64,000 bases of DNA from an uncultured Eubacteriales bacterium (GCA_964627255.1 CAZVIN010000083.1:86114-150113), one strand, 5' to 3'. Shown: positions 1-18,744, numbered from the stretch's first letter. Notes: generated by a model from the sequence alone, not told the origin. Program-made: numbers and translations.

Positions 1-286
1 CATAGGTTTGGTTGCCGAACCGCTCATAAAGGTTGAAAATAACCACCACGCCGAATTCCTTAGCTTTAGCCGCTATCAAGTCCGACGTTGGCCCCGGAAT
101 AGTTTCTGCTAAGGAAATAGATGCCGGGTCATTTGGCCTTTGAGGGAAAAAGGGCAGGAAACTCAATTCAGGAAAAACAATAAGCTCCGCTCCCTTTTGG
201 GCCGCTTCTTGCAGGGCGGCCAAACCGCGCCTAATATTAGCCTGCTTTGAGGGCATAGCTTTCTGCTGGATTAAGGCGAGTTTCAT
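1..286 (-). CDS. Carbon-nitrogen hydrolase (nitrilase superfamily) N-terminal part; the gene continues beyond the window start
   Basis: The reverse strand from an ATG at 286-284 reads MKLALIQQKAMPSKQANIRRGLAALQEAAQKGAELIVFPELSF..., which contains the CN-hydrolase catalytic-Glu context 'LIVFPE'. The reading frame runs off the window edge. Confidence 0.55.
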   Translation of the reverse strand, partial: MKLALIQQKAMPSKQANIRRGLAALQEAAQKGAELIVFPELSFLPFFPQRPNDPASISLAETIPGPTSDLIAAKAKEFGVVVIFNLYERFGNQTY

Positions 287-444
287 CTTAAGCCTCTTTT
301 CCTAAAACCTGTTCTTAATATTAGCCGGTTTATGACGCCTAAGCAAGCTGATAAGCCAAAGAAACAGTTTTAGATAGAAGAGAACGACATTTTTAATTCT
401 TGATTGCTCTAATAAGGTCAGCTTGGATAAAATGTTAGCTTACG

Positions 445-2496
445 ATGCCCAAGCTTAGCTTTTTCCGAAGAGAAGCTCTTTTTAAAATGTTTCTTGACTT
501 ACCGCTCAGAACTAAATTCATTTTAAGTTTTCTCGTGGTTATTGGCTTCGGTGGTTTATTTTCGCTTTTCTTCGGGACGCGCTTAGAACATCGGACTATC
601 TTTTCCTTGGCCCAGGCTAAGGTTCGTCATGACCTGGATTCTGCCAGGACCGTTTATCAAGAAAAAATTAACGATATCCGCGACATCGTGCAGCTTAATT
701 CTATTCGTGACTCTATCCAACGAGCTCTTCTCAGCCAGGACCGCCAACTTCTTCTACGGCAGCTTGGCCGTATCAGGCAGGAATTCAAACTGGACATACT
801 AAACGTCGTTGATGCTCAAGGAATAGTCATGTTAAGAACGAGGAATCCTGAAATTTACGGCGACGAGTTGGCCTCCGACCCTATTATTTCTATAGCGCTC
901 AAAGGAGAGATAACGAATGGCACAGGGGTAGTATCGCGGGAAGTTCTGTTGCGTGAAGGCGAAGAGCTGGCATCGCAAGCCTATATTAAATTTATTCCGA
1001 CCCCGCGGGCTACTCCCAAGGCAGAAGACCACGAAGAAAATGGCCTGATGCTTTTAGCGGCTGCGCCGATATGGGATGGCCAGGGAAAGGTAGCCGGCGT
1101 TTTATATGGCGGCCTTCTTCTCAATCGTAATTACGGCATTGTCGACCGGGTTAAAGATATTGTCTTTAAAGGGGAGAGATATAAGGGAAAGGAAATCGGT
1201 ACGGTGACCATTTTCCAGCACGACCTCCGTATTTCAACCAATGTTACCGACGAATTCGGTGAGAGAGCTATTGGCACGAGGGCTTCTCAGGAAGTAGCCG
1301 AAACAGTCCTCGACCGGGGCGAGCCATGGATTGGCCGGGCTTTTGTCGTTAACCATTGGTACATTGCCGCTTACGAACCGATCCGAGACGTAACGGGAGC
1401 AATTATTGGAATGCTCTACGTCGGCATGTTGGAAAAGCCATATATCGACCTGAGGAACCGCGTTATGTTGACCTTTACTGGCCTTGCCGGACTCTGTGCC
1501 GTAATTCTGCTTGTTATCCTTTCGAGTATTACCTCAACTATTATTAACCCTTTGCAACGGATGGTTCAGGCAACTCAGAAGATTGCTCATGGCGAGCTTA
1601 ATCACAAGGTGGCGATTGACTGGCGAGATGAAATTGGCCAATTAGCTGAATCTTTCAACCGCATGACTGAAGACCTGAAAGCCGCCAATGAGAATTTAGT
1701 CCAGTGGAGTAAAACCTTAGAGAGAAAAGTCGAGGAAAGGACGCGAGAATTAAAGGAGATGCAGGATTATCTTATCCAGTCCGAAAAGCTGGCTTCCTTA
1801 GGCAAAATGGCCGCCGGCATTGCTCATGAAATCAACAATCCTTTGACCTCAATTTTAATTAACGCTCATCTTCTTTTGGAAAAACTGGCCAAGACCGAAA
1901 AAAAAGACGAATTTTACGAAAATCTTAGCCTCATTGCCGAAGAAACAGCGCGTTGTAGCCAAATAGTCCGTGGTTTACTCGAGTTTGCCCGGCAGAGTCC
2001 ACCCCAAAAGGATTTTATCGATATCAACGATTGGCTCGAAAAAACGGTGACGCTTCTGGAAAATAAAGCCTCGTTTCAAAACATCAAAATTGTTAAAAAT
2101 TTTGACCCGAACTTGCCGCTAATTCGGCTTGACCGTTCCAAAATTCAGCAGGTTTTTTGGAATCTGATGGTTAACGCCTGTGAAGCCATGCCCAGGGGAG
2201 GTCAATTAACTATTGTGACACAGTTGGCCGAAAATAAAAAGGCGATTGAAGTTAGCTTTATTGATAATGGAGTCGGTATTCCCGCCGAGAATCTCAATAA
2301 GATTTTCGACCCCTTTTTTACTACTAAAGCCAGCGGCACTGGCCTTGGCTTAGCTATCTGTTATGGCATTATTCAGCAGCATCAAGGTCTGATTGAGGTT
2401 AAAAGTGAAGTGGGGCGAGGAACGGTCTTTACTTTAATTTTACCCTTAGAAACCAAAAGTAATAATCAGATAACAGGAGGAACTTCTGATGACTGA
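445..2496 (+). CDS. Sensor histidine kinase (N-terminal TM, periplasmic Cache-like sensor, second TM, HAMP, HisKA, HATPase_c)
   Basis: H-box '[18 protein letters not shown]', N-box '[12 protein letters not shown]' and G-boxes 'DNGVGIP' / '[12 protein letters not shown]' are present. Two hydrophobic segments flank an extracellular domain of about 280 aa. The stop overlaps the start of the next gene by 8 nt. Confidence 0.85.
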
Positions 2497-3265
2497 AAAA
2501 GAGAAAAGGAAAATTCTGGTGGTTGACGATGAAATTACTGTCTGCAAAAGTATTCGCCAAGCAATACTAAGTGAGGGCCAGGAAGTGGACATGGCATTGA
2601 GCGGAGAGGAAGCCCTAACCAAAGACCGAGAGAAGCGGTATGACTTAGTTATCACCGATTTAATGATGCCAGGAATAAGCGGTCTTGACCTGTTACGGGA
2701 AATTAAAGTAGCGCATCCGGAAGTCAAAGTAGTGATGATTACTGGATATCCCACGATTAAGACAGCGGTTGAGTCAATCAAATTAGGTGCCTTTGATTAC
2801 ATCCCTAAACCATTTACGCCCGCTGAATTGAGAGCCTTAGTGGTACGAGCCCTCAAACAGGCAGAAACCGAGACTAGTACAGAAGCCACAGCGGTCGAAG
2901 CCAAAATTCCTGCTGGCTATTATTACCTCATCGGTCATACCTGGCTCAAATTAGAGACAAGTAATTATGGCCTGGTGGGAGTAACGCATGATTTTTTAAG
3001 AAGCGTCGGGATAATCATGCACCTCGAGCTTCCCAAAATTGGCGATACTCTTTCGCAAGGCGAAGTATGTGCCAAGATTACTGATGCCGACCGCTTCCAC
3101 CACCGCATCTGGTCTCCCGCTTCAGGCCGAGTAATTGAGGTAAATACTGCTTTGCTTCATGATTTCTCTTTATTGCGGCGCTCGCCCTACAACGAAGGCT
3201 ATCTATTTAAGATTGACCTCGTTGCCTTGGAGGAAGACCTAAAGGGTCTTTTGCAAGCTAAGTAG
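2489..3265 (+). CDS. Response regulator: N-terminal receiver domain fused to a C-terminal glycine-cleavage H-protein (GcvH)-like domain
   Basis: REC motifs 'ILVVDDE', 'DLVITDLMMPGISG' and 'VMITGY' are present. The C-terminal half 'GHTWLKLE...VGVTHDF...LELPKIGDTLSQGEVCAKITDADR...SPASGRVIEVNTAL...SPYNEGYLFKI' matches the GcvH fold signature (HxW, SG.V.EVN, PY..GW-like tail). Confidence 0.75.
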   Translation: MTEKEKRKILVVDDEITVCKSIRQAILSEGQEVDMALSGEEALTKDREKRYDLVITDLMMPGISGLDLLREIKVAHPEVKVVMITGYPTIKTAVESIKLGAFDYIPKPFTPAELRALVVRALKQAETETSTEATAVEAKIPAGYYYLIGHTWLKLETSNYGLVGVTHDFLRSVGIIMHLELPKIGDTLSQGEVCAKITDADRFHHRIWSPASGRVIEVNTALLHDFSLLRRSPYNEGYLFKIDLVALEEDLKGLLQAK

Positions 3266-3279
3266 CGCCTTTAATTAAA

Positions 3280-6200
3280 ATGTCACTGGCTGGGAGCCGA
3301 CCATTTTTTGATAGCGAAGAGACTTTTTCGCGAATTGTGAATTCGCTTTTAGAGGAGCTGCCCGAGCACGCCATTTTTTTCTTAAACCCGAAGGGAAATT
3401 GGCAAAAAAGCCCTCGCAGCTGGGAAGAGAGAATAAACCATGAATTCCTTTACCGCCTGAAAACAGAAGCGCCGATTGTCCGGAAAAATTTTATTCAAAT
3501 AACATATGGTTGTCTTAAGAACCCTGATTTTTTATCTCTGGTCCAAAAAATTAGCTCGCTTTGGCTGGAATCTTCATTTCCCTTAGAGAATTGGCTGACC
3601 CTGCCCCCCGAATTGCAAGAAGAGCTAAGGCCTTCCATTCTAAGTGCGGTTTGGAATCAGAAACGGTTTAGCGAGGACGCGAGGATTTTTATAAATTTTA
3701 TCCGACTCGTAACTAATATAATTTTATCCCGTTGTTTAGAACTAAATAGTACTCTTCCTGTTCCTGATTGGGACGTTCAGGTTCGGGAGGTCAAGTCATA
3801 TTTCTGGCACAGAAGACGGGCCTGGGAGGAAGGAGAAGCGGGTCGTTTTTCTTTGAAAGAAAAAGAGCTTTTTTTTGAGCTACGCCAGATTATCGCGGGT
3901 TCGCTGGCTGGCCTAATTGCTCCGATTGCGCAATTAGTGGCTGAAGAGCAAAGAATTTCCTTAATTTTAGTTAATCTTTTTCGAAAGCTTAAAACATCGT
4001 CGGACAAAGAAGAGATTTATCAGACAATTATCGAGAAATGGCGGCCAGCTATGGGAATAGTCGCCAACCTCTCTTCCTCTCTTTTCTTTCTTTCTCTTTG
4101 TCTTTTAATTCTTCCCGATATTGAGTTATCCAGCGGCCTCCAATACGCGGCCTCGGTAAACCTTAGCCTGTTTCGTGATAAACGTTCTACTGACTATTTG
4201 CTTTATGCCTTAGAAAAATTGCCGATAATCAACACTAAAATAAGGGAAAACATTATTTACACCCTTGGCTGTTTAAAGGAAGCGAGAGCTGTGCCGCTTG
4301 TAGCGCAAATTTTAGAACAACCCGATTTTTGGCCTGAGTCTGATTTAAAAGAAGCCAGAATTTGCCCGCTGCAAGAGCAAAAAGAAGAAGCTATCTGGGC
4401 CTTAGGAAAGATTGGCTTGGCCGCGGTCAAAGCAATCCCCATCCTTTCTTTTTATGCTGAACACCCCTCGGCTAAACTAAAAACTTATTTGGCCTGGGCT
4501 TTGGGTGAGATTGGTCGGGCTCAAAAGGAAAATTCTGGCGGAATAAGCGCTGACCTGCTGATAGCCCTCCTAAGACTGCTCAAGGAAAAAAATAAAGAGG
4601 TTTTCGAAGAGGCCACGAGTGCCTTGAAAAAAATTCAAATGCCCGAGTTTATCCACAATCTTTATCTTTATCATGTGGGGGCAGTCAACCTTTTGAGTTT
4701 AAAGCCAGCCACTACTGGACTTAATGAGCTTTCTGCAACCCTAAATCATTTATTGACCAAGAAGAAAAGGACAGTGATGGTGGTAACAGGAGATTCAGGG
4801 ACGGGGAAAACCTATTTTTGTCAGGTTCTGGCTAAAGGTCTGGCTGGCGTCAAGCCGGCGGAAATTCTTTATCTCATGCGAGATTCTAAAAACGGCCGAA
4901 AAATCTTTAACCGTCTTTTAGGCCTAAACTGGCTCAAGCGCTATATTGACCCGGCCTATTATCAGCCTGAATTGACTGACGAGACTACCGCTGACTCTGA
5001 GACCTTTTGGTCGAGCTTTTTAGAGACTCATAAAGATAAAAAATTCATTTTACTCGATGGTTGCCGGGACCGTCATTATTTCCAGCGAGTTGTTGACCTG
5101 TTTTATGAAAGAGGCGAACTCGACGTGGTTGTCAACTTTAGGGCCAATTTCTCCACCCGCCGTCTTAACCTCGAAGCCAGAGAGGTGGCTTTAGAAAGCG
5201 TCCGGCTTCACCTTTCTTTTCTCGAAGAACCGGCTCTGGAGGACACGTATTTCTATCAAGAGGGAAAAACGATCCTTTATGACCTGGATAATTCGGAAAA
5301 TTCGCGGCTCAATCAGGACGAAATAACCGAGCTCTTTTCTCCGAGAGTGATTCCTCGCTGGGAGGAGTTTATTCAGCTCGGCACTTTTAAATATGAACAA
5401 AACATCCCCCTTACCTCTGAAGAAAAAATAGATTCTCAAGAGGCTTCATTGCAAGCTGAGGTTTCTGAGTGGCCAGAATCTCAAGTGTCCTCGCTTCGGC
5501 CAGAAGAACAAATACTAACAATTCAGTTGAATGAAGCTCTCGCCGCCGAACCCAATTTGCTTTACATTCTACCTTTGACCAAGTTAAAGCCGGAGCGGCT
5601 TCAATTTTATGCTCAAGAACAAGTTGGCGGTGTCGATGAAGACGGTGCAATTTTTGTTCTAACTCTTCTTGACCATCGTCTCTTCCGCGTGCCACTGCAC
5701 CCGAAGCCCGCGACTTTTGCTATCCTCAATCAAGCTTTCTACTTAGTGGATGAATTGGGTGGCCTAGTGAGTGTTTCTTTGGAAAAAGAAGAAAAAATTA
5801 ATTATCGCCTCTCAGGGTCAGCTATTTCTGGTCTTGCCGCCATCCCGCCCGACTGTATTTTAGCGGCGGAAAAAAATGGCCTAATTCGGCTTTGGAACTT
5901 CGAAGAAAAGAAACAGGAGCGTTTAAACCTGGAGGTTGGGCCTATTAACTCCCTGGCCTCGGCCCCAGGAAGAAATGTCTATTTATCCACGGCGACGGAT
6001 ATTATTTGTTTAAATTGGGAAAAAGGGGTCATTAATCGGATGCGCTTAGCAGGTGAGACGCCTAAATCTATTTATACTGTATCGAAGGACAAAATTATAG
6101 CCGTGGTGAGCAGAAAAAATGACACTGAATGGGGCCTGAGGTTTATTAATTTTGATCGAGGGGTGGGCACGACTCTTTGGCTTCCTGGGACCAAAAGGAT

Positions 6201-6486
6201 AAAGACCTTAGCCCCTCTTTTAGACGGCCGGGTGGTTATTATTTGCCAACAGGATAGTAAATCATTCAATGAAGGCCCCACTCTTTTTGTTCTAAATCCA
6301 GAAGGAGATTATTTTTCATTAGCCAGAGTAAATAGACGGCCCATTGAGATAAATGACCTGCTTATTTTAGGCCCAAGAATTCTAACGTGTGGTCTCGAAT
6401 CCAACGGTCAAGGTTCTTTTCGCCTCTGGGGAAGCGAATTTTTTGTCCGAGCGGAAAGAAGTAAACTAAAAATTAAGCCCTTTTAA
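3280..6486 (+). CDS. Large multidomain protein: N-terminal helical region, HEAT/PBS-lyase-like repeats, PRK/uridine-kinase-like P-loop domain, C-terminal WD40-like beta-propeller
   Basis: HEAT-like repeats occur around 'EARAVPLVAQILEQPDF...EAIWALGKIGLAAVKAIPIL...LKTYLAWALGEIGRA' (about nt 4240-4640). Walker A 'VVTGDSGTGKTYF' (nt ~4786-4815) resembles the phosphoribulokinase/uridine-kinase motif GDSG(C/S)GK(S/T)TF. The C-terminal ~330 aa contain WD-like strands ('NGLIRLWNFEEKK', 'GSFRLWGSEFF'). The gene sits 15 nt downstream of the response regulator gene. Confidence 0.7.
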   Translation: MSLAGSRPFFDSEETFSRIVNSLLEELPEHAIFFLNPKGNWQKSPRSWEERINHEFLYRLKTEAPIVRKNFIQITYGCLKNPDFLSLVQKISSLWLESSFPLENWLTLPPELQEELRPSILSAVWNQKRFSEDARIFINFIRLVTNIILSRCLELNSTLPVPDWDVQVREVKSYFWHRRRAWEEGEAGRFSLKEKELFFELRQIIAGSLAGLIAPIAQLVAEEQRISLILVNLFRKLKTSSDKEEIYQTIIEKWRPAMGIVANLSSSLFFLSLCLLILPDIELSSGLQYAASVNLSLFRDKRSTDYLLYALEKLPIINTKIRENIIYTLGCLKEARAVPLVAQILEQPDFWPESDLKEARICPLQEQKEEAIWALGKIGLAAVKAIPILSFYAEHPSAKLKTYLAWALGEIGRAQKENSGGISADLLIALLRLLKEKNKEVFEEATSALKKIQMPEFIHNLYLYHVGAVNLLSLKPATTGLNELSATLNHLLTKKKRTVMVVTGDSGTGKTYFCQVLAKGLAGVKPAEILYLMRDSKNGRKIFNRLLGLNWLKRYIDPAYYQPELTDETTADSETFWSSFLETHKDKKFILLDGCRDRHYFQRVVDLFYERGELDVVVNFRANFSTRRLNLEAREVALESVRLHLSFLEEPALEDTYFYQEGKTILYDLDNSENSRLNQDEITELFSPRVIPRWEEFIQLGTFKYEQNIPLTSEEKIDSQEASLQAEVSEWPESQVSSLRPEEQILTIQLNEALAAEPNLLYILPLTKLKPERLQFYAQEQVGGVDEDGAIFVLTLLDHRLFRVPLHPKPATFAILNQAFYLVDELGGLVSVSLEKEEKINYRLSGSAISGLAAIPPDCILAAEKNGLIRLWNFEEKKQERLNLEVGPINSLASAPGRNVYLSTATDIICLNWEKGVINRMRLAGETPKSIYTVSKDKIIAVVSRKNDTEWGLRFINFDRGVGTTLWLPGTKRIKTLAPLLDGRVVIICQQDSKSFNEGPTLFVLNPEGDYFSLARVNRRPIEINDLLILGPRILTCGLESNGQGSFRLWGSEFFVRAERSKLKIKPF

Positions 6487-6557
6487 TTTTCATATTTTTG
6501 TAAAATAAGCTGCAAAGCTAATCACTTTGAATTTTCGAGCCCACAAGAAGGAATATT

Positions 6558-7946
6558 TTACAGAGAGCGAAATGACTCTATCTCTTCTATTGATTTTGGG
6601 ATTCTTTTGCCCAACACCCGATGCCCCTGAGGTGTGACCAAAACATCATCTTCAATCCGAATACCGCCAAAATTAATATAATCCATTACTTTCTCATAAT
6701 TAATGAAAGCGGTGTGTTTCTTTTCTTTCTTCCATTTAGCAATGAGGGCGGGAATAAAATAAATGCCAGGTTCAACTGTTAGCACAAAGCCTGGCTCTAA
6801 CTTCCTTGCCAGGCGGAGGTAAGCTAAGCCGAACTGGTCGCTGCGCTGGAAGGATTCATCATAACCCACATATTTTTCTCCCAAACCCTCCATATCATGG
6901 ACATCTAAACCGAGCATATGGCCCAAGCCATGAGGAAAGAAAAGGGCGTGGGCGCCAGCGGCAATCGCTTCTTCCACCTCGCCTTTCATCAAGCCTACAT
7001 CTTTTAGGCCCGAAGCTATAACCCGGCAGGCCTGAAGATGAACGTCTTTATAAGGAATTCCGGGTTTAATGGCCAAGATAGCTGTTTCTTGAGCTTGCAG
7101 GACTATTTCGTAAATATCTCGCTGTTTCCGGGTAAATTTCCAGCCAACGGGTAAAGTCCTGGTAATATCTGAGGCATAATGCTCCTTGGATTCAACGCCG
7201 GCATCCATAACCAGCAGTTTCCCCCTCTCTAAACGATGGCTATGCTCATGATTATGCAGAATCTGGCCATTAATGGTTAAAATTATAGGAAAAGCCTGGT
7301 GACATCCCTGGCTTAAGCCCACAGCTTCCATGGCGGCCACCAATTCCCATTCCAGCCTTCCAGGCTGAGCCATTTTCATGCCCGCAAGATACATCTCACG
7401 GGTTAAACTGAGAGCCGCCTCGATTTCCTTTACCTCTAACTCATCTTTAACGGCTCTTAAAGCCACTGTAGCTTTGATCAATTCTTCGGAGGCTCCCGTT
7501 TTGATTTCTTTGGGCGATTTTTTTAAAAGTTGGGCTAAATCAACCACCGTCTCTGAGCGATAAGGCGGGAGATAATGCACCCGACGACCAGCAGCAAGAG
7601 CTTTTTCTATGAATGGCTCTATTTCCTTAAGAGGTAGAACTTCTTTGATGCCAGCTTTTCTTGCCTTTTCAGTTAATTTGGGCTGATGGCCCATCCAGAT
7701 AATGTCTTCTAAGGAAAGTTCATTGCCAAAAATAATTTCTTTGCCTTCATCGAAATCAATCAGACCGACCAAGTCCGGACTATCTATGCCGAAAAAATAG
7801 AGGAAGGAACTATCTTGTCGGAAATGATACGTATTAGCCGGATAATTCATCGGGGCCTCTTTATTACCCCAGAAAAGAGCCAAACCCGAACCTAATTTCT
7901 TTTTTAAGGCTTCACGGCGTTGCCGATAAACTTTGCTTTCAAACAT
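6558..7946 (-). CDS. pepP: Xaa-Pro aminopeptidase / prolidase (peptidase M24B)
   Basis: M24 metal-ligand context 'HGLGHMLGLDVHD', 'VLTVEPGIYF' and 'IRIEDDVLVT' is present, with an N-terminal creatinase_N-like region. Confidence 0.85.
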   Translation of the reverse strand: MFESKVYRQRREALKKKLGSGLALFWGNKEAPMNYPANTYHFRQDSSFLYFFGIDSPDLVGLIDFDEGKEIIFGNELSLEDIIWMGHQPKLTEKARKAGIKEVLPLKEIEPFIEKALAAGRRVHYLPPYRSETVVDLAQLLKKSPKEIKTGASEELIKATVALRAVKDELEVKEIEAALSLTREMYLAGMKMAQPGRLEWELVAAMEAVGLSQGCHQAFPIILTINGQILHNHEHSHRLERGKLLVMDAGVESKEHYASDITRTLPVGWKFTRKQRDIYEIVLQAQETAILAIKPGIPYKDVHLQACRVIASGLKDVGLMKGEVEEAIAAGAHALFFPHGLGHMLGLDVHDMEGLGEKYVGYDESFQRSDQFGLAYLRLARKLEPGFVLTVEPGIYFIPALIAKWKKEKKHTAFINYEKVMDYINFGGIRIEDDVLVTPQGHRVLGKRIPKSIEEIESFRSL

Positions 7947-8128: not shown

Positions 8129-10492
8129 TTAAAAAGCTTCGTGTTCAGTGCGGCGGATAATTTCGTCCTGTAGTTCCTTGCTCAAGTCAACAAAATAATC
8201 GCTAAAACCAGCGACCCGAACAATTAGGTCTCGGTATTTTTCGGGGTAGCGCTGCGCTTCCCGCAGAGTTTCGGCTGTGACCACGTTGAGCTGAATGTGG
8301 TGGCCGTCAAGCCGGAAATAGGTTCTGATAAGATGTGCCAGGTTTTTGAGCCCGTCTTCTGTAGCTAAAAGTTGCGGCGTAAATTTTTGATTAAGCAAAG
8401 TTCCGCCTGTCCGAAGATGGTCGATCTTGGCCACGGACTTTATTACGGCTGTCGGGCCTTTGCGGTCAGCTCCCTGAACCGGGGAGACTCCCTCGGAAAG
8501 GGGTTGGTGCGCTAAGCGGCCGTCGGGAGTTGCGCCGGTCATCTTGCCAAAATAGACATGAACTGTTGTCGGTAAAAGGTTAATGCGATAAGTCCCGCCC
8601 TTCAAATTCGGCCGACCGTTAACTGCCCGGTAATAAATTTCAAATACTTGTCGGAGTAGGCTGTCGGCATAATCATTATCATTTCCATACTTAGGTGTTT
8701 TATTCAGCAGGACTTGGCGCCAGGCCTCAGAACCTTCGAAGTTACGGGACAAAAGCTCCAGAAATTCAGCCATCGAGGTCGACCGTTTATCAAAAACATG
8801 GAAGCGAAGGGCGCTTAAGGAATCAGTAATTGTGCCCATCCCAACCCCCTGGATGTAAGAGGTATTATAGCGGGCACCTCCGTCATGATAATCTTTGGCT
8901 TTGTCAATACAGTCGTCGATCAGCAAGGAAAGGAACGGGGCGGGCAGATATTCCGCATAAATCCTTTCGATAATGTTGTTGCCACGAATTTTAATATCAA
9001 TAAAATGTCTCACCTGCCGCTCGAAAGCCAACAGCAGCTCGTCGAAAGTTTTAAAATTTCTGGGGTCTCCAGTTTCCAAGCCGATTTTTTTGCCGGTCCT
9101 GGGGTCAATGCCGTTGTTCAGTGTGATTTCAAGGACCTTGGGCAGGTTAAAATATCCTGTCAAGATGTAAGCTTCCTTCCCAAAAATTCCAGCCTCCACA
9201 CAACCGCTCGCCCCACCCGACCGAGCATCTTCCAAAGATTTTCCTTGACGCAGCATTTCCTGAATGATGGCGTCGGTGTTAAAAATAGACGGCTGGCCGA
9301 AACCAGTTTTAAGGATTTTTAGAGCGCGCAACAGGAATTCGTCCGGGGTCTTTTTACTGATTTGCACCATCGAGCTGGGCTGGATGAGACGCATTTCTTC
9401 AATCACATCCAATATTAAGAAAGAAAGTTCATTGACTCCATCCGCGCCGTCATTTTTAACCCCGCCCAGATTAATCAGGCAAAAATCAGTATAGGTGGCG
9501 CTTTCTTCCGCGGTGACACCCACCTTAGGAGGAGCGGGCTGATTATTAAATTTAATCCAGAAGGCCTGGAGCAGCTCTCTCGCCTTTTCTTCCGTCAAAG
9601 TGCCTTCTTCTAACCCCTTTTTATAAAAAGGATAAAGATGCTGGTCTAAGCGGCCAGGATTAAAGGAATCCCAAGTGTTGAGTTCGGTTATAACCCCAAG
9701 ATGAACAAACCAGTAATATTGCAGAGCTTCCCAAAAATCACGGGGCGGGTTTTCGGGTACCCAAGAACAAATTTCAGCCAGGCGTTCCAACTCGGCCTTC
9801 CGCTGAGGGTCTTTTTCTTCGGCAGCTAATGCTCGGGCTTTTTGGGCATAGCGGTGGGCATACATGATGAGAGCGTCCGCCACAATTTCCATGGCCTTCA
9901 ACTCTTCCCTTTTTTTTAAGACTTCCGGGTCATTGAATTCATCCAGCCGGCGTCTTGAAGCCGCGATATCCCTTTTTAGGTCCTTAAAGCCCTTCCGGTA
10001 TATTTTATCGTCTAAGACTGTATGGCCTGGAGCCCGCTGCTCCATGAACTCGGTGAAGATGCCAGCTTCATAGGCATCTTTCCATTCCGCGGTCATCTCC
10101 GCAAAGATTTTTTCTCTGATTGTTTTCCCTTGCCAAAAAGGAATGATTTTTTCTCTATAGATTCTTTTTGTTTCCTCCTCTACCAGAAAGGGGGTTTTGC
10201 GACGGCTGTTAAGAATCTCTAAATCCTGTAAAGAATGGCAGGTGACCTCAGGATAAGTCGGAGTGGCCTTAGGAGCCGGCCCTCTTTCGCCGACAATAAG
10301 CTCGCCTTCGTCGAGCCAAAGAGCTTTTTTTTCTAAGAGATGACGAAAAGCCAGAGCTCTTTTTACCGCCGGAGAAAGGGTCGGGTCATTATTCTCTTGA
10401 TAAAATTCAGTCAAAAGCAAGGCTCTTTCGGGAGTGATATAAGGTTTAGTGTTAAGACTCTTTTCCCTGAGACGGGCAATTCTTTGATTCAT
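8129..10492 (-). CDS. Glycyl radical enzyme, PFL2/eliminase-like family (787 aa); substrate unknown
   Basis: C-terminal glycine-radical motif 'RVAGFSDYFVDL'. Thiyl-radical loop 'SGGASGCVEAGIFG' (Cys-x-Glu as in glycerol/choline/hydroxyproline-type eliminases, not the CC of pyruvate formate-lyase). Size and layout match the PFL2 family. Confidence 0.85.
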   Translation of the reverse strand: MNQRIARLREKSLNTKPYITPERALLLTEFYQENNDPTLSPAVKRALAFRHLLEKKALWLDEGELIVGERGPAPKATPTYPEVTCHSLQDLEILNSRRKTPFLVEEETKRIYREKIIPFWQGKTIREKIFAEMTAEWKDAYEAGIFTEFMEQRAPGHTVLDDKIYRKGFKDLKRDIAASRRRLDEFNDPEVLKKREELKAMEIVADALIMYAHRYAQKARALAAEEKDPQRKAELERLAEICSWVPENPPRDFWEALQYYWFVHLGVITELNTWDSFNPGRLDQHLYPFYKKGLEEGTLTEEKARELLQAFWIKFNNQPAPPKVGVTAEESATYTDFCLINLGGVKNDGADGVNELSFLILDVIEEMRLIQPSSMVQISKKTPDEFLLRALKILKTGFGQPSIFNTDAIIQEMLRQGKSLEDARSGGASGCVEAGIFGKEAYILTGYFNLPKVLEITLNNGIDPRTGKKIGLETGDPRNFKTFDELLLAFERQVRHFIDIKIRGNNIIERIYAEYLPAPFLSLLIDDCIDKAKDYHDGGARYNTSYIQGVGMGTITDSLSALRFHVFDKRSTSMAEFLELLSRNFEGSEAWRQVLLNKTPKYGNDNDYADSLLRQVFEIYYRAVNGRPNLKGGTYRINLLPTTVHVYFGKMTGATPDGRLAHQPLSEGVSPVQGADRKGPTAVIKSVAKIDHLRTGGTLLNQKFTPQLLATEDGLKNLAHLIRTYFRLDGHHIQLNVVTAETLREAQRYPEKYRDLIVRVAGFSDYFVDLSKELQDEIIRRTEHEAF

Positions 10493-10494
10493 CC

Positions 10495-11403
10495 TTAACC
10501 TCCTATGGAGATAGGCAATTTAGTTTTATTAAAAAAATGGGCGATTTTTTCCATGGATTCAAGCGAAGGCTTTTTAAGCTCAGCTAATTGATAACTGCGG
10601 CCCAAGCGGGTGTATTTTTCCTTACCAAAAGAATGGTAAGGCAAAAGCTCTATGCCCTTAATCGGGGGGAGAGAGGAAATAAAAGAGGCCATCTGAACTA
10701 AATTGGCTTCATCATCATTGATTGAGGGAACGACGGGAATGCGAATAACGACTTTATCTGTGAGCCGAGCTAAGCTTATCAGGTTTTCTAATATTAGTTC
10801 ATTTCTTAAACCTGTAGCTAAGCGGTGTCTTTCCGGGTCCATTAATTTCAGGTCATAAAGAAAGAGGTCGACCAACGTCCAAATTCGCTTGAAAACTTTA
10901 AAGGGGGCATAGCCTGAGGTATCAACTGTGGTTGAGAGCCGATTTTTCTTGCTGAGTTCGAGAAGTTCCTCTAAGAACTCAGCTTGAAGAAGCGGTTCAC
11001 CTCCAGAGAAGGTCACGCCGCCCCCAGATTCCTCATAAAACGGAGAATCCTTCATGACCTCGGCCATTACTTCAGCAGCCGTCATTTTCTTGCCTACTAT
11101 TTCCAGGGCTTCTGAGGGGCAAATCTCGGCACAGAGGCCACAACAATCGCAGCGTTGCGCCTCGATTAGGGGCGAGACGCCGGGTTTAGAGATTGCCCCT
11201 TGAGGGCATTTTTCTAAACAGAGCTGACAGCCATCAAGGCAGCGGTTGAGTCGAAGCATAAGCTCTGGTCCGATTTTTTGGCCCTCTGGATTATGGCACC
11301 AGAGGCAGCGAAGGGGGCAACCTTTGAAAAAAATAGTTGTTCGAATTCCAGGTCCGTCGTGGAGGGCGTACTTTTTGATGTCGAACACAATCCCCTGAGT
11401 CAA
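10495..11403 (-). CDS. Glycyl-radical enzyme activating enzyme (radical SAM, with extra ferredoxin-like Cys clusters)
   Basis: 'CPLRCLWCHNPE' CxxxCxxC radical-SAM motif, plus 'CxxCxxxC' ferredoxin-type clusters ('CDCCGLCAEICP'). 302 aa. Lies 2 nt upstream of the glycyl radical enzyme on the same strand. Confidence 0.85.
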   Translation of the reverse strand: MTQGIVFDIKKYALHDGPGIRTTIFFKGCPLRCLWCHNPEGQKIGPELMLRLNRCLDGCQLCLEKCPQGAISKPGVSPLIEAQRCDCCGLCAEICPSEALEIVGKKMTAAEVMAEVMKDSPFYEESGGGVTFSGGEPLLQAEFLEELLELSKKNRLSTTVDTSGYAPFKVFKRIWTLVDLFLYDLKLMDPERHRLATGLRNELILENLISLARLTDKVVIRIPVVPSINDDEANLVQMASFISSLPPIKGIELLPYHSFGKEKYTRLGRSYQLAELKKPSLESMEKIAHFFNKTKLPISIGG

Positions 11404-12092
11404 AGTTCACCCCCAGTCGCGGTTTTTTCTACCGGGTAATATTTTAAGATATAACTTTTTTGAACTTCGAAGGACCAGTGGACGTCCCGAATAAATCGGG
11501 CGGCCGCCTCATAATCCTTTCGTTGCAGAAAACCGAGCAGATGTTCATGCTCCCTTATTGAGGCTTCCTCCCATTCCCGGATATAGGCTGGCTGACGGGG
11601 AAAATCGTAAAGTCTTTTTTTGAGGGTGTTGACGATGCGATTTAATTCGGGATTATGACAACGGGATAAATAAACATTATGAAATTCAAGATTACGCTCA
11701 TAATAGGTATCAAAGTCGTCTCGGCTGAGAGCTTTTTTCATTCCTTCAACAAGCTTTAACATGGTTTCTAAATCTTTTTCGCTGATGCTAGGACCAGCTC
11801 TCAGAATAGCCAAGCTTTCCAAGGCACCGATGACCTCATAGGCATTTTTAATCTCCTCAAGAGTGAGCGGGTTGACTATTACCCCCCGCCGTGGTTTGAT
11901 CGTCACAAAGTTTTCCATAGCTAATTGCAGAAGAGCATCTCTTAAGGGAGTCTTGCTGATTCCCAGCGATTGGGCTGTTTCCTCCATCTTGATTTCTTCA
12001 CCTGGTTTTAGCCTACCGCGGCGTAACTGGAGCCGGAGATAATCGTAGACCTGTTCTTTGAGAGATTTAAAAGTTAGCCGAGGATTACGCAT
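11400..12092 (-). CDS. GntR-family transcriptional regulator (FadR/FCD-type C-terminal domain)
   Basis: N-terminal winged HTH 'EETAQSLGISKTPLRDALLQLAMENFVTIKPRRGVIV'. Helical C-terminal FCD-like domain. ATGA overlap with the activase gene. Confidence 0.8.
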   Translation of the reverse strand: MRNPRLTFKSLKEQVYDYLRLQLRRGRLKPGEEIKMEETAQSLGISKTPLRDALLQLAMENFVTIKPRRGVIVNPLTLEEIKNAYEVIGALESLAILRAGPSISEKDLETMLKLVEGMKKALSRDDFDTYYERNLEFHNVYLSRCHNPELNRIVNTLKKRLYDFPRQPAYIREWEEASIREHEHLLGFLQRKDYEAAARFIRDVHWSFEVQKSYILKYYPVEKTATGGEL

Positions 12093-12975: not shown

Positions 12976-13485
12976 TTGATGGCCGAAAAAATGGCTGCGT
13001 TCTTATTTTTCCTTTTCGCCATCGTTAGTTTGGCCGCAATTATGGGGATGATCTTTTCTCGGCACCAAGCCCACAACGCTCTTTTCTTGGCCGTAGCATT
13101 CACCGCCTTAGGCGGCCTCTTTGCCTTGCTTAATGCTCCCTTTATTGCGGCGGTTCAAATTATTATTTATGCCGGCGCCATCATGGTCCTTTTTATATTT
13201 GTGATCATGATGATCGACCTTCGTCAGCCTTTACCGGCTGCCAAGAAAAGATGGATATATTGGCTTGGCGCGGGGCTCATGATTGTTGTCCTCACAGAAC
13301 TACTTTTTGTTCTGCGTTCTCTTCCTTCGGTCAACAGCAGCGCCGAGCCTGATTTTGGTAGCCCGAGGGCCTTGGGACAAATTCTTTTCACTAAATATCT
13401 TTATGCTTTTGAAATTACTTCCATCCTCATCGTGGCCGCCCTTGTCGGCTCTCTTTATTTAGCACGCAGGAAGGAGAAGGACTAA
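12976..13485 (+). CDS. nuoJ: NADH-quinone oxidoreductase subunit J
   Basis: Hydrophobic 169-aa protein with the NuoJ/ND6-like pattern. First gene of a tightly packed J-K-L-M-N series. Confidence 0.75.
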   Translation: MMAEKMAAFLFFLFAIVSLAAIMGMIFSRHQAHNALFLAVAFTALGGLFALLNAPFIAAVQIIIYAGAIMVLFIFVIMMIDLRQPLPAAKKRWIYWLGAGLMIVVLTELLFVLRSLPSVNSSAEPDFGSPRALGQILFTKYLYAFEITSILIVAALVGSLYLARRKEKD

Positions 13486-13784
13486 TGCCGCCAGCCTCAT
13501 TTTTTATTCTGAGCTGTGTGCTTTTCTCGATGGGCGGGGTGGCCTTTTTAATCAAACGCGACTTGATTACCCAATTTATGGCCATCGAAATAATGCTCAA
13601 TGGAGCCAATTTAGCCCTCGTGGCGGCCGCCAAACTCTGGGGGTCTCTGGCCGGTCAAGTGCTTGTTTTCTTCGTAATTACGGTGGCCGCGGCCGAAGCG
13701 GCGGTCGGCTTGGCCATCATCCTTTTGATTTATCGCCAGAAAAAAAATATCAGGTCTGAGGAGATTAATCAGCTGAAGGGTTAG
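13485..13784 (+). CDS. nuoK: NADH-quinone oxidoreductase subunit K
   Basis: 99 aa, three TM helices, 'FFVITVAAAEAAVGLAIIL' (NuoK/ND4L signature with conserved Glu). Confidence 0.8.
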   Translation: MPPASFFILSCVLFSMGGVAFLIKRDLITQFMAIEIMLNGANLALVAAAKLWGSLAGQVLVFFVITVAAAEAAVGLAIILLIYRQKKNIRSEEINQLKG

Positions 13785-13785
13785 G

Positions 13786-15693
13786 ATGAGTGAGTATTTT
13801 TGGTTAATCCCCTTTTTTCCAGCGGTTAGTTCTCTTATTCTGGTTATTTTTGGCCGCTGGCTGCCCAAAAAATATGTTTCTATCCAGGCTCCACTGGCTG
13901 TCTTTCTTTCTTTTCTTTTTGGGCTAAAAGCTTTTCTCTCTCTAAACCAATCTCACCTCGAGACGGAAGGGCCGGCCTTGGTTAAGACTCTTTTCTCCTG
14001 GATTCACTCTGGCCAGTTTCAGATAGATTTTACGTTCTGGTTTGACCCGTTAACGGCAGTCATGGTGCTGGTGGTAAGCGGTGTTGGTTTTATTATTCAT
14101 GTGTATTCCGTTGGTTATATGGCCGAAGACAGAAGTTACACCCGTTATTTTAGCCTACTCAATCTTTTTACCTTCGCCATGCTCCTCCTGGTTATGTCTC
14201 AGAATGTCGTCCTGATGTTCGTCGGTTGGGAAGGAGTCGGCCTTTGTTCCTATCTTTTAATCGGCTTTTGGTTTGAAAAACCGGCGGCGGCCAGCGCCGG
14301 CAAAAAAGCCTTTATCGTTAACCGGATTGGCGACGCTGCCTTTATACTGGGTATCTTTTTCCTTATTATTAACTTGAAAACAGCTTCTTTTCCGGAGATT
14401 AACCATGCCCTTTTGAGCGGTCAAGTTTCTCCGGCTTTGGCCACACTCATCGGCCTGTTGTTGTTTATCGGGGCCACGGGAAAATCAGCTCAGATTCCCC
14501 TCTATGTTTGGTTGCCTGATGCTATGGAAGGTCCGACCCCTGTAAGTGCTCTGATCCATGCGGCGACCATGGTAACGGCGGGCGTTTATATGGTTTCACG
14601 GTTCAACCTGCTTTACAGTTACTCCTCCGCTGCTTCTGACGTGATAGCGATAATCGGGGCCTTAACCGCTGTTTATGCCGGAACAATTGCTCTAACTCAG
14701 AATGATATCAAGCGCGTCCTCGCCTATTCGACGATTTCTCAGATTGGCTATATGTTTCTTGGTTGTGGAGTCGGCGCCTATGCTGCGGGTATGTTTCATC
14801 TTTATACCCATGCCTTTTTTAAGAGTCTTCTTTTCTTGGCTGCGGGCAGCGTGATGCATGCCCTTTCTGGTGAGTTGGACATGAGGAAAATGGGCGGACT
14901 AAAAAAATATCTTCCGCTCACCTACCCCACTTTTCTAATCGGCGCGATCACTATTGCTGGCGTTCCCTTCTTTTCGGGCTTCTTCTCGAAGGACGCTATC
15001 CTAACGCAATGTTATGCTCAAGGCAAATACCTTCTTTGGGCTCTCGGCCTTGTCGGCGCGGTTATAACAGCCTTTTATATGTTTCGCCTTATTTTCCTCA
15101 CTTTTCACGGCCAGGAACGCTTCTCAGCTGAAGTTCGACATCATCTCCGCGAATCGCCTCCTGTAATGACTATTCCGTTAATTATTCTTGCCTTTTTCTC
15201 CGTGGTCGCTGGTTACGTTGGCCTGCCCGTAGTCTTTGGTCATAACCTAAACTGGTTTGAACAATTCTTAGAGCCGGTTATAAAAGGAAAAGCCGAAGCT
15301 CATCTAACTCTGAGTATGGAATGGCTTTTAATCATCGTTTCGGTAGCGGTCGCCCTAACCGGCATCGCCCTCGCCTACCTGCTTTATCAAAAATCACCCT
15401 TGCTTCCCCATCAACTGGTCCGTCGTTTTCCTCGTTTCTATCGCCTTCTTCTCAATAAATACTATGTTGATGAAATTTATGAGGCGGCCTTTGTTCAACC
15501 CTTGGTTCGTGGTTCTGAGGCGATTTATTATGGCTTTGACCTGCCAGTAATTGATGGGGCCGTTAATGGCTCGGCCCGGTTGACGGCCTTTTTCGGGAGG
15601 ATTTTGAGCCTGTTTCAAACTGGGCAAGTGAGGGATTACGCTCTTATTTTCCTTATAGGAGTGGCGCTAATATTAGGTTTGGTTATATTTTAA
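13786..15693 (+). CDS. nuoL: NADH-quinone oxidoreductase subunit L
   Basis: 635 aa antiporter-like subunit with the long C-terminal extension typical of NuoL/ND5. Confidence 0.8.
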   Translation: MSEYFWLIPFFPAVSSLILVIFGRWLPKKYVSIQAPLAVFLSFLFGLKAFLSLNQSHLETEGPALVKTLFSWIHSGQFQIDFTFWFDPLTAVMVLVVSGVGFIIHVYSVGYMAEDRSYTRYFSLLNLFTFAMLLLVMSQNVVLMFVGWEGVGLCSYLLIGFWFEKPAAASAGKKAFIVNRIGDAAFILGIFFLIINLKTASFPEINHALLSGQVSPALATLIGLLLFIGATGKSAQIPLYVWLPDAMEGPTPVSALIHAATMVTAGVYMVSRFNLLYSYSSAASDVIAIIGALTAVYAGTIALTQNDIKRVLAYSTISQIGYMFLGCGVGAYAAGMFHLYTHAFFKSLLFLAAGSVMHALSGELDMRKMGGLKKYLPLTYPTFLIGAITIAGVPFFSGFFSKDAILTQCYAQGKYLLWALGLVGAVITAFYMFRLIFLTFHGQERFSAEVRHHLRESPPVMTIPLIILAFFSVVAGYVGLPVVFGHNLNWFEQFLEPVIKGKAEAHLTLSMEWLLIIVSVAVALTGIALAYLLYQKSPLLPHQLVRRFPRFYRLLLNKYYVDEIYEAAFVQPLVRGSEAIYYGFDLPVIDGAVNGSARLTAFFGRILSLFQTGQVRDYALIFLIGVALILGLVIF

Positions 15694-15694
15694 A

Positions 15695-17311: not shown

Positions 17312-18744
17312 ATCAATTAGCTTCTCTCGCCCCTCTGCTTCTGGTGCTTCTGGCTTCACTACTTATCCTTCTTTTAGAAGCCTTCGGCCGCTGGTCTCAA
17401 CGCATCTGGCACGCCACGGTCGCCATCACGGCGCTGATTGGCTCAATATTCCTGGCTCTTAATTGGTGGGAAAAAACAGCTACCTACTTTTCTGGTGCTT
17501 ACATAATGGATAATGTGGCGATTATTTTTATGGTCCTTTTTTCCTTAGCCGGAATCTTGGTCATTCTTCTTTCTTTCCCTTATATGGTTGACCATGGTTT
17601 TAACCGTGGAGAGTTCTTCTCTTTGCTCCTTTTGGCCATTACCGGTTTGATGATTATGGCTTCCTCTGAAGACTTGGTCGTTATTTTTCTCGGTCTAGAA
17701 ACATTGTCGGTAGCGAGTTATGTTTTGGCCGGGATGAAAAAACACGACGAAAAGTCATCGGAAGCAGCCATCAAATATTTTCTTTTGGGCAGTTTGGCTT
17801 CAGCCTTTATTGTTCTTGGATTAGCCTTTTTTTCGGCGCAAAATCAGAGTTTAAACCTGCAAGAGTTGACTTCGCTGGCGACTGATAAGCTGGAATCACC
17901 TCTTTTTCTCGCCGGTCTTTGCCTTCTCCTTGTTGGTTTCGGTTTTAAAGTGGCCCTGGTTCCGTTTCACATGTGGACGCCTGACGTTTATCAGGGAGCG
18001 CCGACGCCTATTACCGCCTTTTTTTCCGTCGGGCCCAAGGCGGCGGGTTTCCTGGTCCTTTTTAGACTTTTTTATTCCATTATGAAAATAGAGGCAGATG
18101 TTAGCAGTATTCAGACCATCCTTTGGATTTTGAGTGTCCTGACGATGGTCGTTGGTAATTTGATTGCGCTTCGCCAGAAAAATGTGAAGCGGCTTTTAGC
18201 TTATTCTTCAATTGCCCACGCTGGCTACCTCGCTATTGCTCTTTTATCTCGTGATGGCCAGGGTTTAACCTTTTATTTACTGGCTTATCTTTTTATGAAC
18301 GTCGGGGCCTTTGCCGTTCTGGTAGCCTTGAGTGCCAAGGGACAGGAATTTCATGAACTAGAAGATTTCAACGGCCTGGGAGAACGAAGGCCGTGGCTGG
18401 CAGCGGCCATGTCAGTTTTTCTTCTTTCTCTGGCGGGCTTCCCGCCGACCGCCGGGTTCTTGGCTAAATTTTATATCTTCAGCACGGCGGTGAAGCAGGG
18501 TTTTACCTCATTAATCATTATCGCTGTCCTGGCCTCCTTAGTCTCGGTTTATTATTACCTGCGAGTAATCGTTCATATGTATATGATCAAAGAGGCCCCT
18601 GCTCTACCTGCTATGAAAGCTGAACCACCTCTTCTTCTGATCGTCATCTTTTTCTGTCTATACGGCGTTTTTCAGTTAGGTCTCTTTCCTGCCAGATTGA
18701 TAAGTCTCATTCGCCAAGCTCTGACTACTTCTTCTCTCCCCTAA
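17308..18744 (+). CDS. nuoN: NADH-quinone oxidoreductase subunit N
   Basis: 478 aa antiporter-like subunit (ND2 family). Start overlaps the nuoM stop. Confidence 0.8.
   Translation: MNQLASLAPLLLVLLASLLILLLEAFGRWSQRIWHATVAITALIGSIFLALNWWEKTATYFSGAYIMDNVAIIFMVLFSLAGILVILLSFPYMVDHGFNRGEFFSLLLLAITGLMIMASSEDLVVIFLGLETLSVASYVLAGMKKHDEKSSEAAIKYFLLGSLASAFIVLGLAFFSAQNQSLNLQELTSLATDKLESPLFLAGLCLLLVGFGFKVALVPFHMWTPDVYQGAPTPITAFFSVGPKAAGFLVLFRLFYSIMKIEADVSSIQTILWILSVLTMVVGNLIALRQKNVKRLLAYSSIAHAGYLAIALLSRDGQGLTFYLLAYLFMNVGAFAVLVALSAKGQEFHELEDFNGLGERRPWLAAAMSVFLLSLAGFPPTAGFLAKFYIFSTAVKQGFTSLIIIAVLASLVSVYYYLRVIVHMYMIKEAPALPAMKAEPPLLLIVIFFCLYGVFQLGLFPARLISLIRQALTTSSLP

Follow-up and report, generated by a model that had tools for sequence, protein, structure and literature searches.

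A three-gene unit with an unusual response regulator

The 64,000-nucleotide (nt) stretch of DNA analysed here, hereafter the window, comes from an uncultured Eubacteriales bacterium (GCA_964627255.1, CAZVIN010000083.1:86114-150113) and carries at positions 445-6486 three genes for a sensor histidine kinase (HK), a response regulator (RR) and a protein of 1068 amino acids (aa) that we call P3. We find that they form a real, conserved and undescribed module, namely a two-component system whose output domain is without precedent and whose orphan effector is dedicated to it. The listing of open reading frames (ORFs) agreed with a first-pass annotation of the sequence in placing the three genes contiguously on one strand, with an 8-nt overlap between the HK stop and the RR start (ATGACTGA), whereas the spacer between RR and P3, given there as 15 nt, measures 14 nt (3266-3279). 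The ORFs are long and have hundreds of full-length homologues, and are thus not chance readings. The unit is laid out as follows.

445-2496, plus strand: HK gene, 683 aa (ORF listing, Pfam)
2476-2481, plus strand: strong Shine-Dalgarno sequence AGGAGG, 7 nt before the RR ATG and within the 3' end of the HK gene
2489-3265, plus strand: RR gene, 258 aa; receiver (REC) and lysine-less GcvH-like domain
3280-6486, plus strand: P3 gene, 1068 aa, cytoplasmic; N-terminal helical region, HEAT repeats, P-loop domain and beta-propeller
286-444, no strand: presumed promoter region of the three-gene unit, intergenic, bounded by the HK gene and the divergent CN-hydrolase gene

Both flanking genes lie on the opposite strand, with a divergent CN-hydrolase (carbon-nitrogen hydrolase) gene on the minus strand that starts near 285 as the upstream border and a convergent M24 aminopeptidase gene (6558-7946) as the downstream one, so that no other same-strand gene adjoins the unit and the 160 bp of intergenic DNA upstream belong to it alone. 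A scan of positions 1-7000 for sigma-70 promoter and intrinsic terminator consensus sequences gave counts at or below the expectation from shuffled sequence.

Co-inheritance of HK, RR and P3

P3 homologues formed 192 clusters at 90% identity in a collection of 5.8 billion proteins, the named ones coming from metagenome-assembled genomes (MAGs) of Candidatus Aminicenantes, and a scan of one genome per species found P3 relatives encoded in 97 genomes. The hosts were mostly Aminicenantes, but also Zixibacteria, WOR-3, Stahlbacteria, Edwardsbacteria, Eisenbacteria and records labelled Gemmatimonadota and Heimdallarchaeota, and a search with the regulator added Calditrichota and KSB1 as hosts of the module of HK, RR and P3 (L088 and L090).

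We then compared 80 fetched P3 loci. When the HK sensor, the HK core, the receiver and the GcvH-like domain of the window were used as tblastn queries, all of them preceded P3, with order and strand preserved, at every locus with enough upstream DNA except one, with identities to the window of 44-77% for the sensor, 57-80% for the receiver and 33-73% for the GcvH-like domain. HK orthologues lay upstream of RR in 71 of the 80 loci; the gaps between RR and P3 were mostly 0-29 nt, and the 8-nt overlap of HK and RR recurred in many loci. The order HK-RR-P3 was kept even in lineages with P3 identities as low as 27-32%, while the flanks were variable, since no neighbour from the window recurred across the loci and 109 immediate neighbours fell into 61 clusters. 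The exceptional locus (L051:9478-12456) holds a decayed module, in which an Rrf2 gene abuts residue 253 of P3 and two ORFs make up what is left of P3; it is a deletion remnant from which HK, RR and P3 residues 1-252 were lost together.

The initial view of the three genes as one unit, and the expectation that they would co-occur across genomes, were thus borne out. Indeed, full-length P3 with enough upstream DNA was always preceded by the two-component pair among the fetched loci, rather than being a routine enzyme found elsewhere without it. The reverse comparison within the P3-linked RR clade, made with four close RR homologues outside the listed P3 matches and with the regulators of L088, L090 and L091, gave a Cache-type HK upstream and P3 downstream for six of the seven regulators. 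No RR-P3 gene fusion was found among the P3 relatives, all of which are ~1,000-1,080 aa long or fragments. In mirror-tree analysis, the partial correlations of the REC residuals were 0.42-0.44 with the HEAT and P-loop regions of P3 and 0.12-0.13 with its N-terminal and WD40 regions, values that follow how fast each domain changes overall.

Some loci deviated in detail. Zixibacteria bacterium SM23_81 has two copies of the whole module on different contigs (L064:8241-9963 and L056:3636-5373), both with two tandem REC-GcvH genes between the kinase gene and P3. A 'Gemmatimonadota' MAG carries a 431-aa ORF inserted between the HK and RR genes (L055:7473-8768), which by eye we take to resemble acetyl-CoA hydrolase/transferase enzymes, and insertions of similar size occupy the same place in L061 and L070. 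The record binned as Candidatus Heimdallarchaeota (L058, DXJL01000014.1) is a 5.9-kb contig with a full bacterial-type module, whose P3 is ~32% identical to that of the window and Zixibacteria-like; it is most likely a misbinned bacterial contig.

The response regulator joins an intact receiver to a lysine-less H-protein fold

Two domains make up RR.

2513-2842, plus strand: receiver domain, aa 9-118; D13, D14, D57, T85, Y104 and K107 intact
2921-3259, plus strand: GcvH-like barrel-sandwich domain, aa 145-257; R202 at the lipoyl-lysine position; D199, H205, R206 and W208 conserved

The receiver matched Response_reg with an expectation value (E) of 2.1e-30 (Pfam), and its D13, D14, D57, T85, Y104 and K107 were kept in 191-192 of the 192 RR family members. 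Since this phospho-acceptor set is invariant, phosphorylation of RR is expected to work. The nearest solved receivers are of the NtrC type, the receiver averages 70% pairwise identity across phyla, and the RR homologues were 62-95% identical. Apart from the receiver and the GcvH-like domain, Pfam found no DNA-binding or enzymatic output domain in RR, in line with the initial suggestion that the pathway does not end in DNA binding.

The second domain scored 62.1 bits against the Pfam GCV_H model (cut-off 22.2 bits; E 6.1e-17) and aligned to residues 3-119 of Escherichia coli GcvH (PDB 3a8i) with E 3.6e-15 (HMMER). In this alignment, the lipoyl-lysine of E. coli GcvH (ESVK65A) faces Arg202 of RR, adjoining a one-residue insertion in the hairpin. 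The same column holds Gln in 42, Gly in 36, Lys in 34, His in 28, Arg in 21 and Asn in 18 of the 192 family members, and D199, H205, R206 and W208 are nearly invariant among them. Both the sequence and the fold are therefore those of an H-protein, while the conserved lipoyl-lysine at the hairpin tip is missing. Judged by its sequence, the domain is a repurposed, lysine-less H-protein fold and not a lipoyl carrier, so that the 'lipoyl-carrier-like' output of the first-pass annotation stands for the fold and falls for the carrier. We also considered H205 as a phospho-acceptor, by analogy with EIIA-Glc of the same fold superfamily; this candidate was weakened by Tyr at the position in 13 of the 192 members and by Asn in one out-group protein.

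P3 combines HEAT repeats and a WD40 propeller with an orphan P-loop domain

P3 was divided into five regions, given below with their mean pairwise identities where these were calculated.

3280-4149, plus strand: N-terminal all-helical region, aa 1-290; least conserved, 29% identity
4150-4641, plus strand: HEAT repeats, aa 291-454; 51% identity
4642-4761, plus strand: segment PEFxHxLYLYHVGA...LKPA..GLNELS, aa 455-494; 67% identity, the highest in P3
4762-5349, plus strand: P-loop NTPase/kinase-like domain, aa 495-690; 64% identity
5392-6429, plus strand: beta-rich C-terminal region, aa 705-1050; a five-strand unit, then about seven 4-stranded WD40-like blades

P3 indeed contains both HEAT repeats and a WD40 beta-propeller, as initially annotated. 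HEAT_2 scored 34 bits (Pfam cut-off 27.7 bits) and was the sole P3 domain above its cut-off; the P3 family profile matched designed HEAT-like alphaRep proteins, and an AlphaFold2 (AF2) model, built on 21 homologues with a mean predicted local distance difference test score (pLDDT) of 78, showed helical repeats at aa 287-451. For the propeller, the family profile matched PDB 2ymu with E 2.4e-31 over seven stretches, the AF2 model contained 28 strands in seven groups at aa 760-1050, and Foldseek comparison with WD40 proteins gave TM-scores of 0.6-0.69 (normalised to the target). A C-terminal helix (aa 1053-1063) is also conserved.

Constraint peaked from the HEAT repeats through the following segment to the P-loop domain, and the propeller and the N-terminal region averaged 29-34% identity. 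Three motifs of the P-loop region were invariant, namely the Walker A sequence GDSGTGKT (aa 504-511, within GDSGTGKTYF at 504-513), ILLDG (589-594) and the Arg-rich FRANFSTRRLNLExRE (620-635). Despite the high conservation of aa 455-494, residues 458-477 were modelled with pLDDT <50, and this combination suggests that the segment may be a partner-binding or regulatory one.

The P-loop domain shows the features of its class, a P-loop fold in which a Walker A sequence of the GxxxxGK[ST] form is joined by an acidic residue that follows a hydrophobic strand. Modelled alone, it was five-stranded with a pLDDT of 74, whereas its putative lid (aa 622-664) had a pLDDT <50, and Foldseek, at E around 1e-3, matched it to thymidylate and adenylate kinases, MeaB/MMAA and FtsY. 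AAA_18 was the sole Pfam model matched by all 22 P3 members, all below the cut-off; the phosphoribulokinase (PRK) model PF00485 was matched by 11 of the 22, also below the cut-off (best E 3.1e-3), and the nearest NCBIfam nucleoside-kinase match had E 0.067. In hhalign comparisons with manually entered E. coli sequences, Udk aligned over 27 columns around the P-loop (probability 37%) and Adk over the P-loop alone (probability 6%), and SIMIBI GTPases and the Clp1/Grc3 polynucleotide kinases scored as well or better. Membership in the PRK/uridine-kinase type, which the initial annotation had read from the Walker A sequence, or in the adenylate kinases was thus rejected, since the alignment was confined to Walker A and the Pfam matches lay below their cut-offs. 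Furthermore, when the domain profile was searched against 1.84 billion representatives, it retrieved 67 proteins, all of them of the ~1,000-1,070-aa P3 architecture or fragments. The domain is hence an orphan in the kinase/GTPase class, found in the P3 architecture only, and either a kinase or a switch NTPase; its exclusivity also marks P3 as dedicated to the module. In a fold search with the whole of P3, the apparent kinship with Raptor proved to be one of domain order alone (TM-score ~0.2), and the remaining matches were generic WD40 proteins.

The sensor kinase and its predicted ligand

HK has the layout of a membrane-bound sensor.

HK topology (two predicted transmembrane segments): TM1 at ~aa 24-45, extracytoplasmic region at aa 46-340 (~295 aa), then TM2, HAMP, HisKA and HATPase_c
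1120-1458, plus strand: sCache_3_3 module, aa 226-338, second half of the extracytoplasmic region; R262, T265, T278, Y310 and Y325
1531-2451, plus strand: transmitter, with HAMP at aa 363-412, HisKA at aa 452-517 and HATPase_c at aa 563-669

The Pfam scores of HisKA (54.1 bits, cut-off 26.9), HATPase_c (95.3 bits, cut-off 26.4) and HAMP (55.5 bits) all exceeded their cut-offs, and with HisKA and HATPase_c above the curated thresholds HK is, by its domain content, an orthodox two-component kinase. Its nearest NCBIfam kinase cores are of the AtoS/ZraS type, which are partners of NtrC-type receivers. The sCache_3_3 match was equally clear, at 121.8 bits (cut-off 28.8 bits; E 1.9e-35) over profile positions 3-105 of 107, and the sensor is unusually conserved for its kind, at 63% mean pairwise identity.

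The sole PDB relatives of the extracytoplasmic region were 8py0 and 8py1 (68 residues aligned, E 9e-6), which are formate-bound sCache domains (Monteagudo-Cascales et al. 2025, PMC11804620). In these domains formate is held by an Arg salt bridge, Thr residues and a Tyr, with R142, T145 and T158 of PacF 98-99% conserved in 744 homologues, while a Phe forms the floor of the pocket and shuts out acetate and other ligands larger than formate, and a second Phe and two Ile/Leu residues also belong to the signature; the published formate-binding family consists almost exclusively of chemoreceptors (PMC11804620). The formate-contact residues map, through the 68-residue HMMER alignment, to R262, T265, T278 and Y310 of HK, and the pocket-floor Phe position to Y325, all five being invariant in 54 of 54 full-length HK orthologues. 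HK thus combines the model match and the Arg/Thr/Thr/Tyr set with a Tyr in place of the Phe. Our prediction for the ligand is formate or some other very small anion; confidence in it is moderate to low because of the short alignment, the different pocket floor and the predominance of chemoreceptors in the published family.

Related regulators outside the module

A search with the most divergent regulator, that of L079, extended the P3-linked regulators to further phyla and also brought up remoter REC-GcvH proteins of 29-38% identity, which form out-groups. REC-GcvH genes accompany genes for a HAMP kinase in three of the loci without P3, namely beside hypE, D, C, F, B and A (L086), beside a multihaem cytochrome c gene, here with two REC-GcvH genes (L087), and beside convergent BACON and CCP_MauG genes (L089); in a fourth case (P0413) the partner is a PAS kinase, again without P3. 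The out-group REC-GcvH proteins were all lysine-less, and most of them keep His three residues after the lysine position (K+3).

A further locus (L085:342-8429) encodes a REC-GcvH protein, then a fusion of REC-GcvH with a 4Fe-4S domain like the HdrC subunit of heterodisulfide reductase (Hdr) (P0391, 442 aa), an HdrB-like CCG protein, a helix-turn-helix (HTH) protein and an HdrA-like protein of 1,495 aa with Fer4 and Pyr_redox_2 domains. It thus joins this type of regulator directly to heterodisulfide-reductase-like components.

Two loci bear on the constancy of the partnership. In a Stahlbacteria MAG (L069:9597-9962), a bare 121-aa receiver without the GcvH-like domain is encoded between the Cache-HK and P3, with a 4-nt overlap with P3, which suggests that P3 is constantly partnered by the receiver; here the kinase gene is directly preceded by a gene for a double-receiver protein. 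In the complete WOR-3 genome CP070705.1 (L091:5132-6777), RR follows a sensor-less 291-aa kinase and has no adjacent P3. The L091 RR adjoins phage-like genes (DUF4815, Phage-Gp8).

Recurrent neighbours and the surroundings in the window

No fourth gene was conserved universally across the loci; two associations recurred in subsets only, and the 64-kb window has neither of them. In about 20 Aminicenantes loci (among them L002-L004, L012, L013, L019, L024, L027, L028, L049-L051, L053, L066, L074 and L081-L083), the HK gene is directly preceded by a divergent Rrf2 regulator gene and by a pstSCAB-like operon for phosphate transport, and 11 loci match a gene for the phosphate-selective porin Porin_O_P. 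This arrangement occurs in several deep P3 subclades and is absent from the lineage of the window and from the phyla other than Aminicenantes; it may be a relic of ancestral gene order or point to some connection with phosphate.

The second association is with group-3-like [NiFe]-hydrogenase genes (large and small subunits and an FAD/NAD subunit), which in 10 loci stand no more than 10 kb from the module, in at least four arrangements (L022, L032, L033, L046, L048, L054, L057, L078, L088 and L090). Chance alone would give about 0.2-0.3 such loci for a single-copy operon, with shared ancestry ignored. In L054, the hydrogenase, two single-domain receivers, a REC-HisKA-HATPase kinase, hypB, hypA and the module are all encoded on one strand.

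Beyond the module, the window encodes on its minus strand (8129-12092) a PFL-like glycyl-radical enzyme of 787 aa, its radical-SAM activase and a GntR/FCD regulator, a group shared only with the close relative L084. In place of the Cys-Cys of pyruvate formate-lyase, the glycyl-radical enzyme has one active-site Cys, set within GCVE, and is presumably a dehydratase or lyase-type enzyme rather than a formate producer. Genes for NuoJ-, NuoL-, NuoM- and NuoN-like membrane subunits (12976-18744) coincide with a strong AT skew (-0.25 to -0.28), and an NtrC-type sigma-54 activator (19364-20824, minus strand; REC, Sigma54_activat and HTH_8), without an adjacent kinase gene, has a receiver of the same type as the REC-GcvH regulator.

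Proposed mechanism and alternatives

The gene structure, the domains, the intact catalytic motifs, the loss of the lipoyl site, the strict co-inheritance and the exclusivity of the P3 P-loop are observed features, and we propose that the three genes form a self-contained, non-transcriptional two-component module, a reading to which we give a probability of about one half. The membrane kinase would sense a small extracytoplasmic anion, most likely formate or one of similar size, through its sCache_3_3 domain; it would then autophosphorylate and pass the phosphate to Asp57 of RR, as the intact catalytic residues suggest. The phosphorylated receiver would act on P3 by protein contact, to which the strict co-inheritance points, and its binding would switch the nucleotide-dependent activity of P3, either as a kinase or as an NTPase switch, while the HEAT and WD40 surfaces would hold the target. 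The GcvH-like domain may serve as a second contact surface or as a separate output arm.

Several points weigh against this proposal. The contact between RR and P3 is proposed from their co-inheritance only, and the mirror-tree correlations are weak and not discriminating. REC-GcvH regulators paired with other kinases and lacking P3, in L086, L087, L089 and P0413, together with the regulator of L091, imply that the GcvH-like domain must have a role independent of P3. These out-groups and the REC-only regulator of Stahlbacteria also weaken the exclusive pairing of RR and P3 that the initial annotation had implied. On the effector side, the P-loop domain fits no family and its putative lid is poorly modelled; on the sensor side, the formate signature is incomplete at Tyr325, a mere 68 residues align to the solved domains, and the published family lies almost exclusively in chemoreceptors rather than kinases. 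Finally, all of the genomes are MAGs.

The main rival, which we regard as possible though rather unlikely, holds that the GcvH-like domain is the real output, an H-protein mimic or adaptor acting on redox enzymes such as Hdr-like complexes, hydrogenase-associated proteins or the partner enzymes of H-protein, and that P3 is an accessory and not the downstream effector, adjusting the pathway as a scaffold or connector or as a phosphatase-like modulator of kinase and regulator. It gains from the wider occurrence of REC-GcvH beyond the P3 module, with out-groups beside hypABCDEF, the multihaem cytochrome and CCP_MauG, from the fusion to the HdrC-like domain followed by HdrB-like and HdrA-like genes, from the lysine-less out-group regulators that mostly share the His at K+3, and from the excess of [NiFe]-hydrogenase genes near the module. 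However, P3 is kept with a REC-only regulator in L069 and is thus independent of the GcvH-like domain, no Hdr or hydrogenase gene occurs in the window or near most of the loci, and the redox contexts are of mixed kinds, for which shared ancestry is part of the explanation. The invariant nucleotide-binding motifs and the size of P3 also suggest an effector rather than a mere modulator. A still bolder picture unites the two outputs in a post-translational control circuit for anaerobic formate/H2 redox metabolism, in which an extracytoplasmic formate-type Cache sensor would, through the receiver, switch a dedicated, eukaryote-style solenoid/NTPase/propeller scaffold and the lysine-less H-protein domain, as a new class of RR output, would dock onto Hdr-like or hydrogenase-associated enzymes; we offer it as speculation, with the odds clearly against it.

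It is improbable that P3 is a regulated small-molecule kinase of the PRK/uridine-kinase or nucleoside-monophosphate-kinase type, through which the pair would control metabolic phosphorylation, the alternative raised in the initial annotation. The Walker A sequence GDSGTGKT does resemble that of the PRK/uridine-kinase type, PF00485 and AAA_18 match weakly in 11 and 22 of the 22 members, respectively, and the Arg-rich segment after strand 4 sits at the usual position of a kinase lid. Yet all Pfam matches lie below the curated cut-offs, the alignments with Udk and Adk are confined to the P-loop, and SIMIBI GTPases and Clp1/Grc3 score equally or better. No substrate-binding motif of any family was recognised in P3, and its P-loop profile finds no other kinase among the 1.84 billion representatives.

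Could the adjacency be no more than inherited gene order, with no functional link between the pair and P3? The hosts are a limited set of related candidate phyla, for which some synteny by descent is expected, and the Rrf2/pstSCAB neighbourhood shows such synteny in Aminicenantes. Nevertheless, we consider this very improbable, because only HK, RR and P3 are kept while both flanks turn over, the order holds at the lowest P3 identities, the start/stop overlaps are conserved, and the genes were lost together in L051.

Little credence can be given to P3 as a STAND-type NTPase (signal transduction ATPase with numerous domains) of a conflict or defence system, regulated by the pair. Weak Pfam P-loop matches to NACHT, NB-ARC and nSTAND and a solenoid/NTPase/propeller layout that recalls Apaf-1-like proteins favour it, but the P-loop domain is ~200 aa long with no helical or winged-helix arm before the propeller, contrary to the STAND architecture, a PADLOC scan of the three proteins gave matches at the receiver or P-loop level only and none of meaning, and the neighbourhoods are varied and housekeeping rather than defence islands. 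Least credible of all is a genuinely lipoylated GcvH domain that would couple phosphorylation to lipoyl/aminomethyl chemistry, since despite significant similarity to true H-proteins over the whole domain, the lysine column is unconserved in the 192 members (Arg in the window), the hairpin carries a one-residue insertion, and the out-group members are likewise lysine-less.

To our knowledge, nearly every two-component system that is understood has transcription, second-messenger turnover or chemotaxis as its end point. Here, an RR without a usual output is nevertheless strongly conserved and locked to a protein of ~1,000 residues whose nucleotide-binding domain lacks detectable relatives. A literature search in a library of 8.0 million papers found no description of a receiver-GcvH regulator or of the HK-RR-P3 operon, consistent with the initial statement that no pathway of this kind has been characterised, and public sources name proteins of the HK, RR and P3 types generically or not at all. 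If the proposed module is real in function, it would add a new class of RR output, built on a disabled lipoyl-carrier fold, and a new orphan NTPase or kinase family; it might possibly also show how abundant uncultured bacteria of sediments and the subsurface (Aminicenantes, Zixibacteria, WOR-3, KSB1 and Calditrichota) react to formate or a comparable product of fermentation. HK, RR and P3 are rich in soluble domains, which would allow their study in vitro without culturing the hosts.

Comparison with known systems

Response regulators that act by protein contact rather than DNA binding include CheY, which acts on FliM, the adaptor RssB, and PorX of the PorY/PorX pair of the type IX secretion system. 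RR is like them in having no DNA-binding domain, a likely protein target and a receiver encoded adjacent to an orthodox HisKA/HATPase_c kinase. In contrast, its lysine-less GcvH output and the HEAT/P-loop/WD40 protein presumed to be its target had no described counterpart in our literature search.

The sensor of HK resembles the formate domains of PacF, Atu0526 and R3/R6 (8py0/8py1; PMC11804620) in its full-length sCache_3_3 module and in the Arg, two Thr and Tyr residues. It differs from the PacF-type domains in the floor Tyr, in the position of the module beside TM2 and behind a second module of ~180 aa, and in being carried by a kinase instead of a chemoreceptor.

The alpha-solenoid followed by a WD40 propeller in P3 recalls Raptor, the scaffold of mTORC1, which provided the top Foldseek matches of the whole protein (E 1.4e-11 to 2e-9). 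Raptor, however, has a caspase-like domain and no P-loop, and at a TM-score of ~0.2 nothing points to common descent. The P-loop domain in turn shares its five-stranded core, Walker A sequence GxxGxGKT, acidic residue after strand 3 and Arg-rich segment after strand 4 with P-loop kinases and SIMIBI NTPases, including Clp1/Grc3, the uridine-kinase-like 1rz3, adenosine-phosphosulfate kinase, adenylate and thymidylate kinases, and the signal recognition particle (SRP)/FlhF GTPases.

Lastly, the output domain of RR shares the fold of the H-protein family (PF01597; GcvH, 3a8i) and is homologous to it over ~115 residues, including the P-x-SG-x-V-x-x-VN scaffold, whereas it has lost the lipoyl-lysine, carries a conserved D...HR.W in the hairpin and is fused to a receiver. 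LbpA proteins are the lipoyl carriers of sulfur-oxidising Hdr-like systems, and the L085 relative with its HdrC-like and HdrB-like genes echoes this partnership of LbpA and Hdr.

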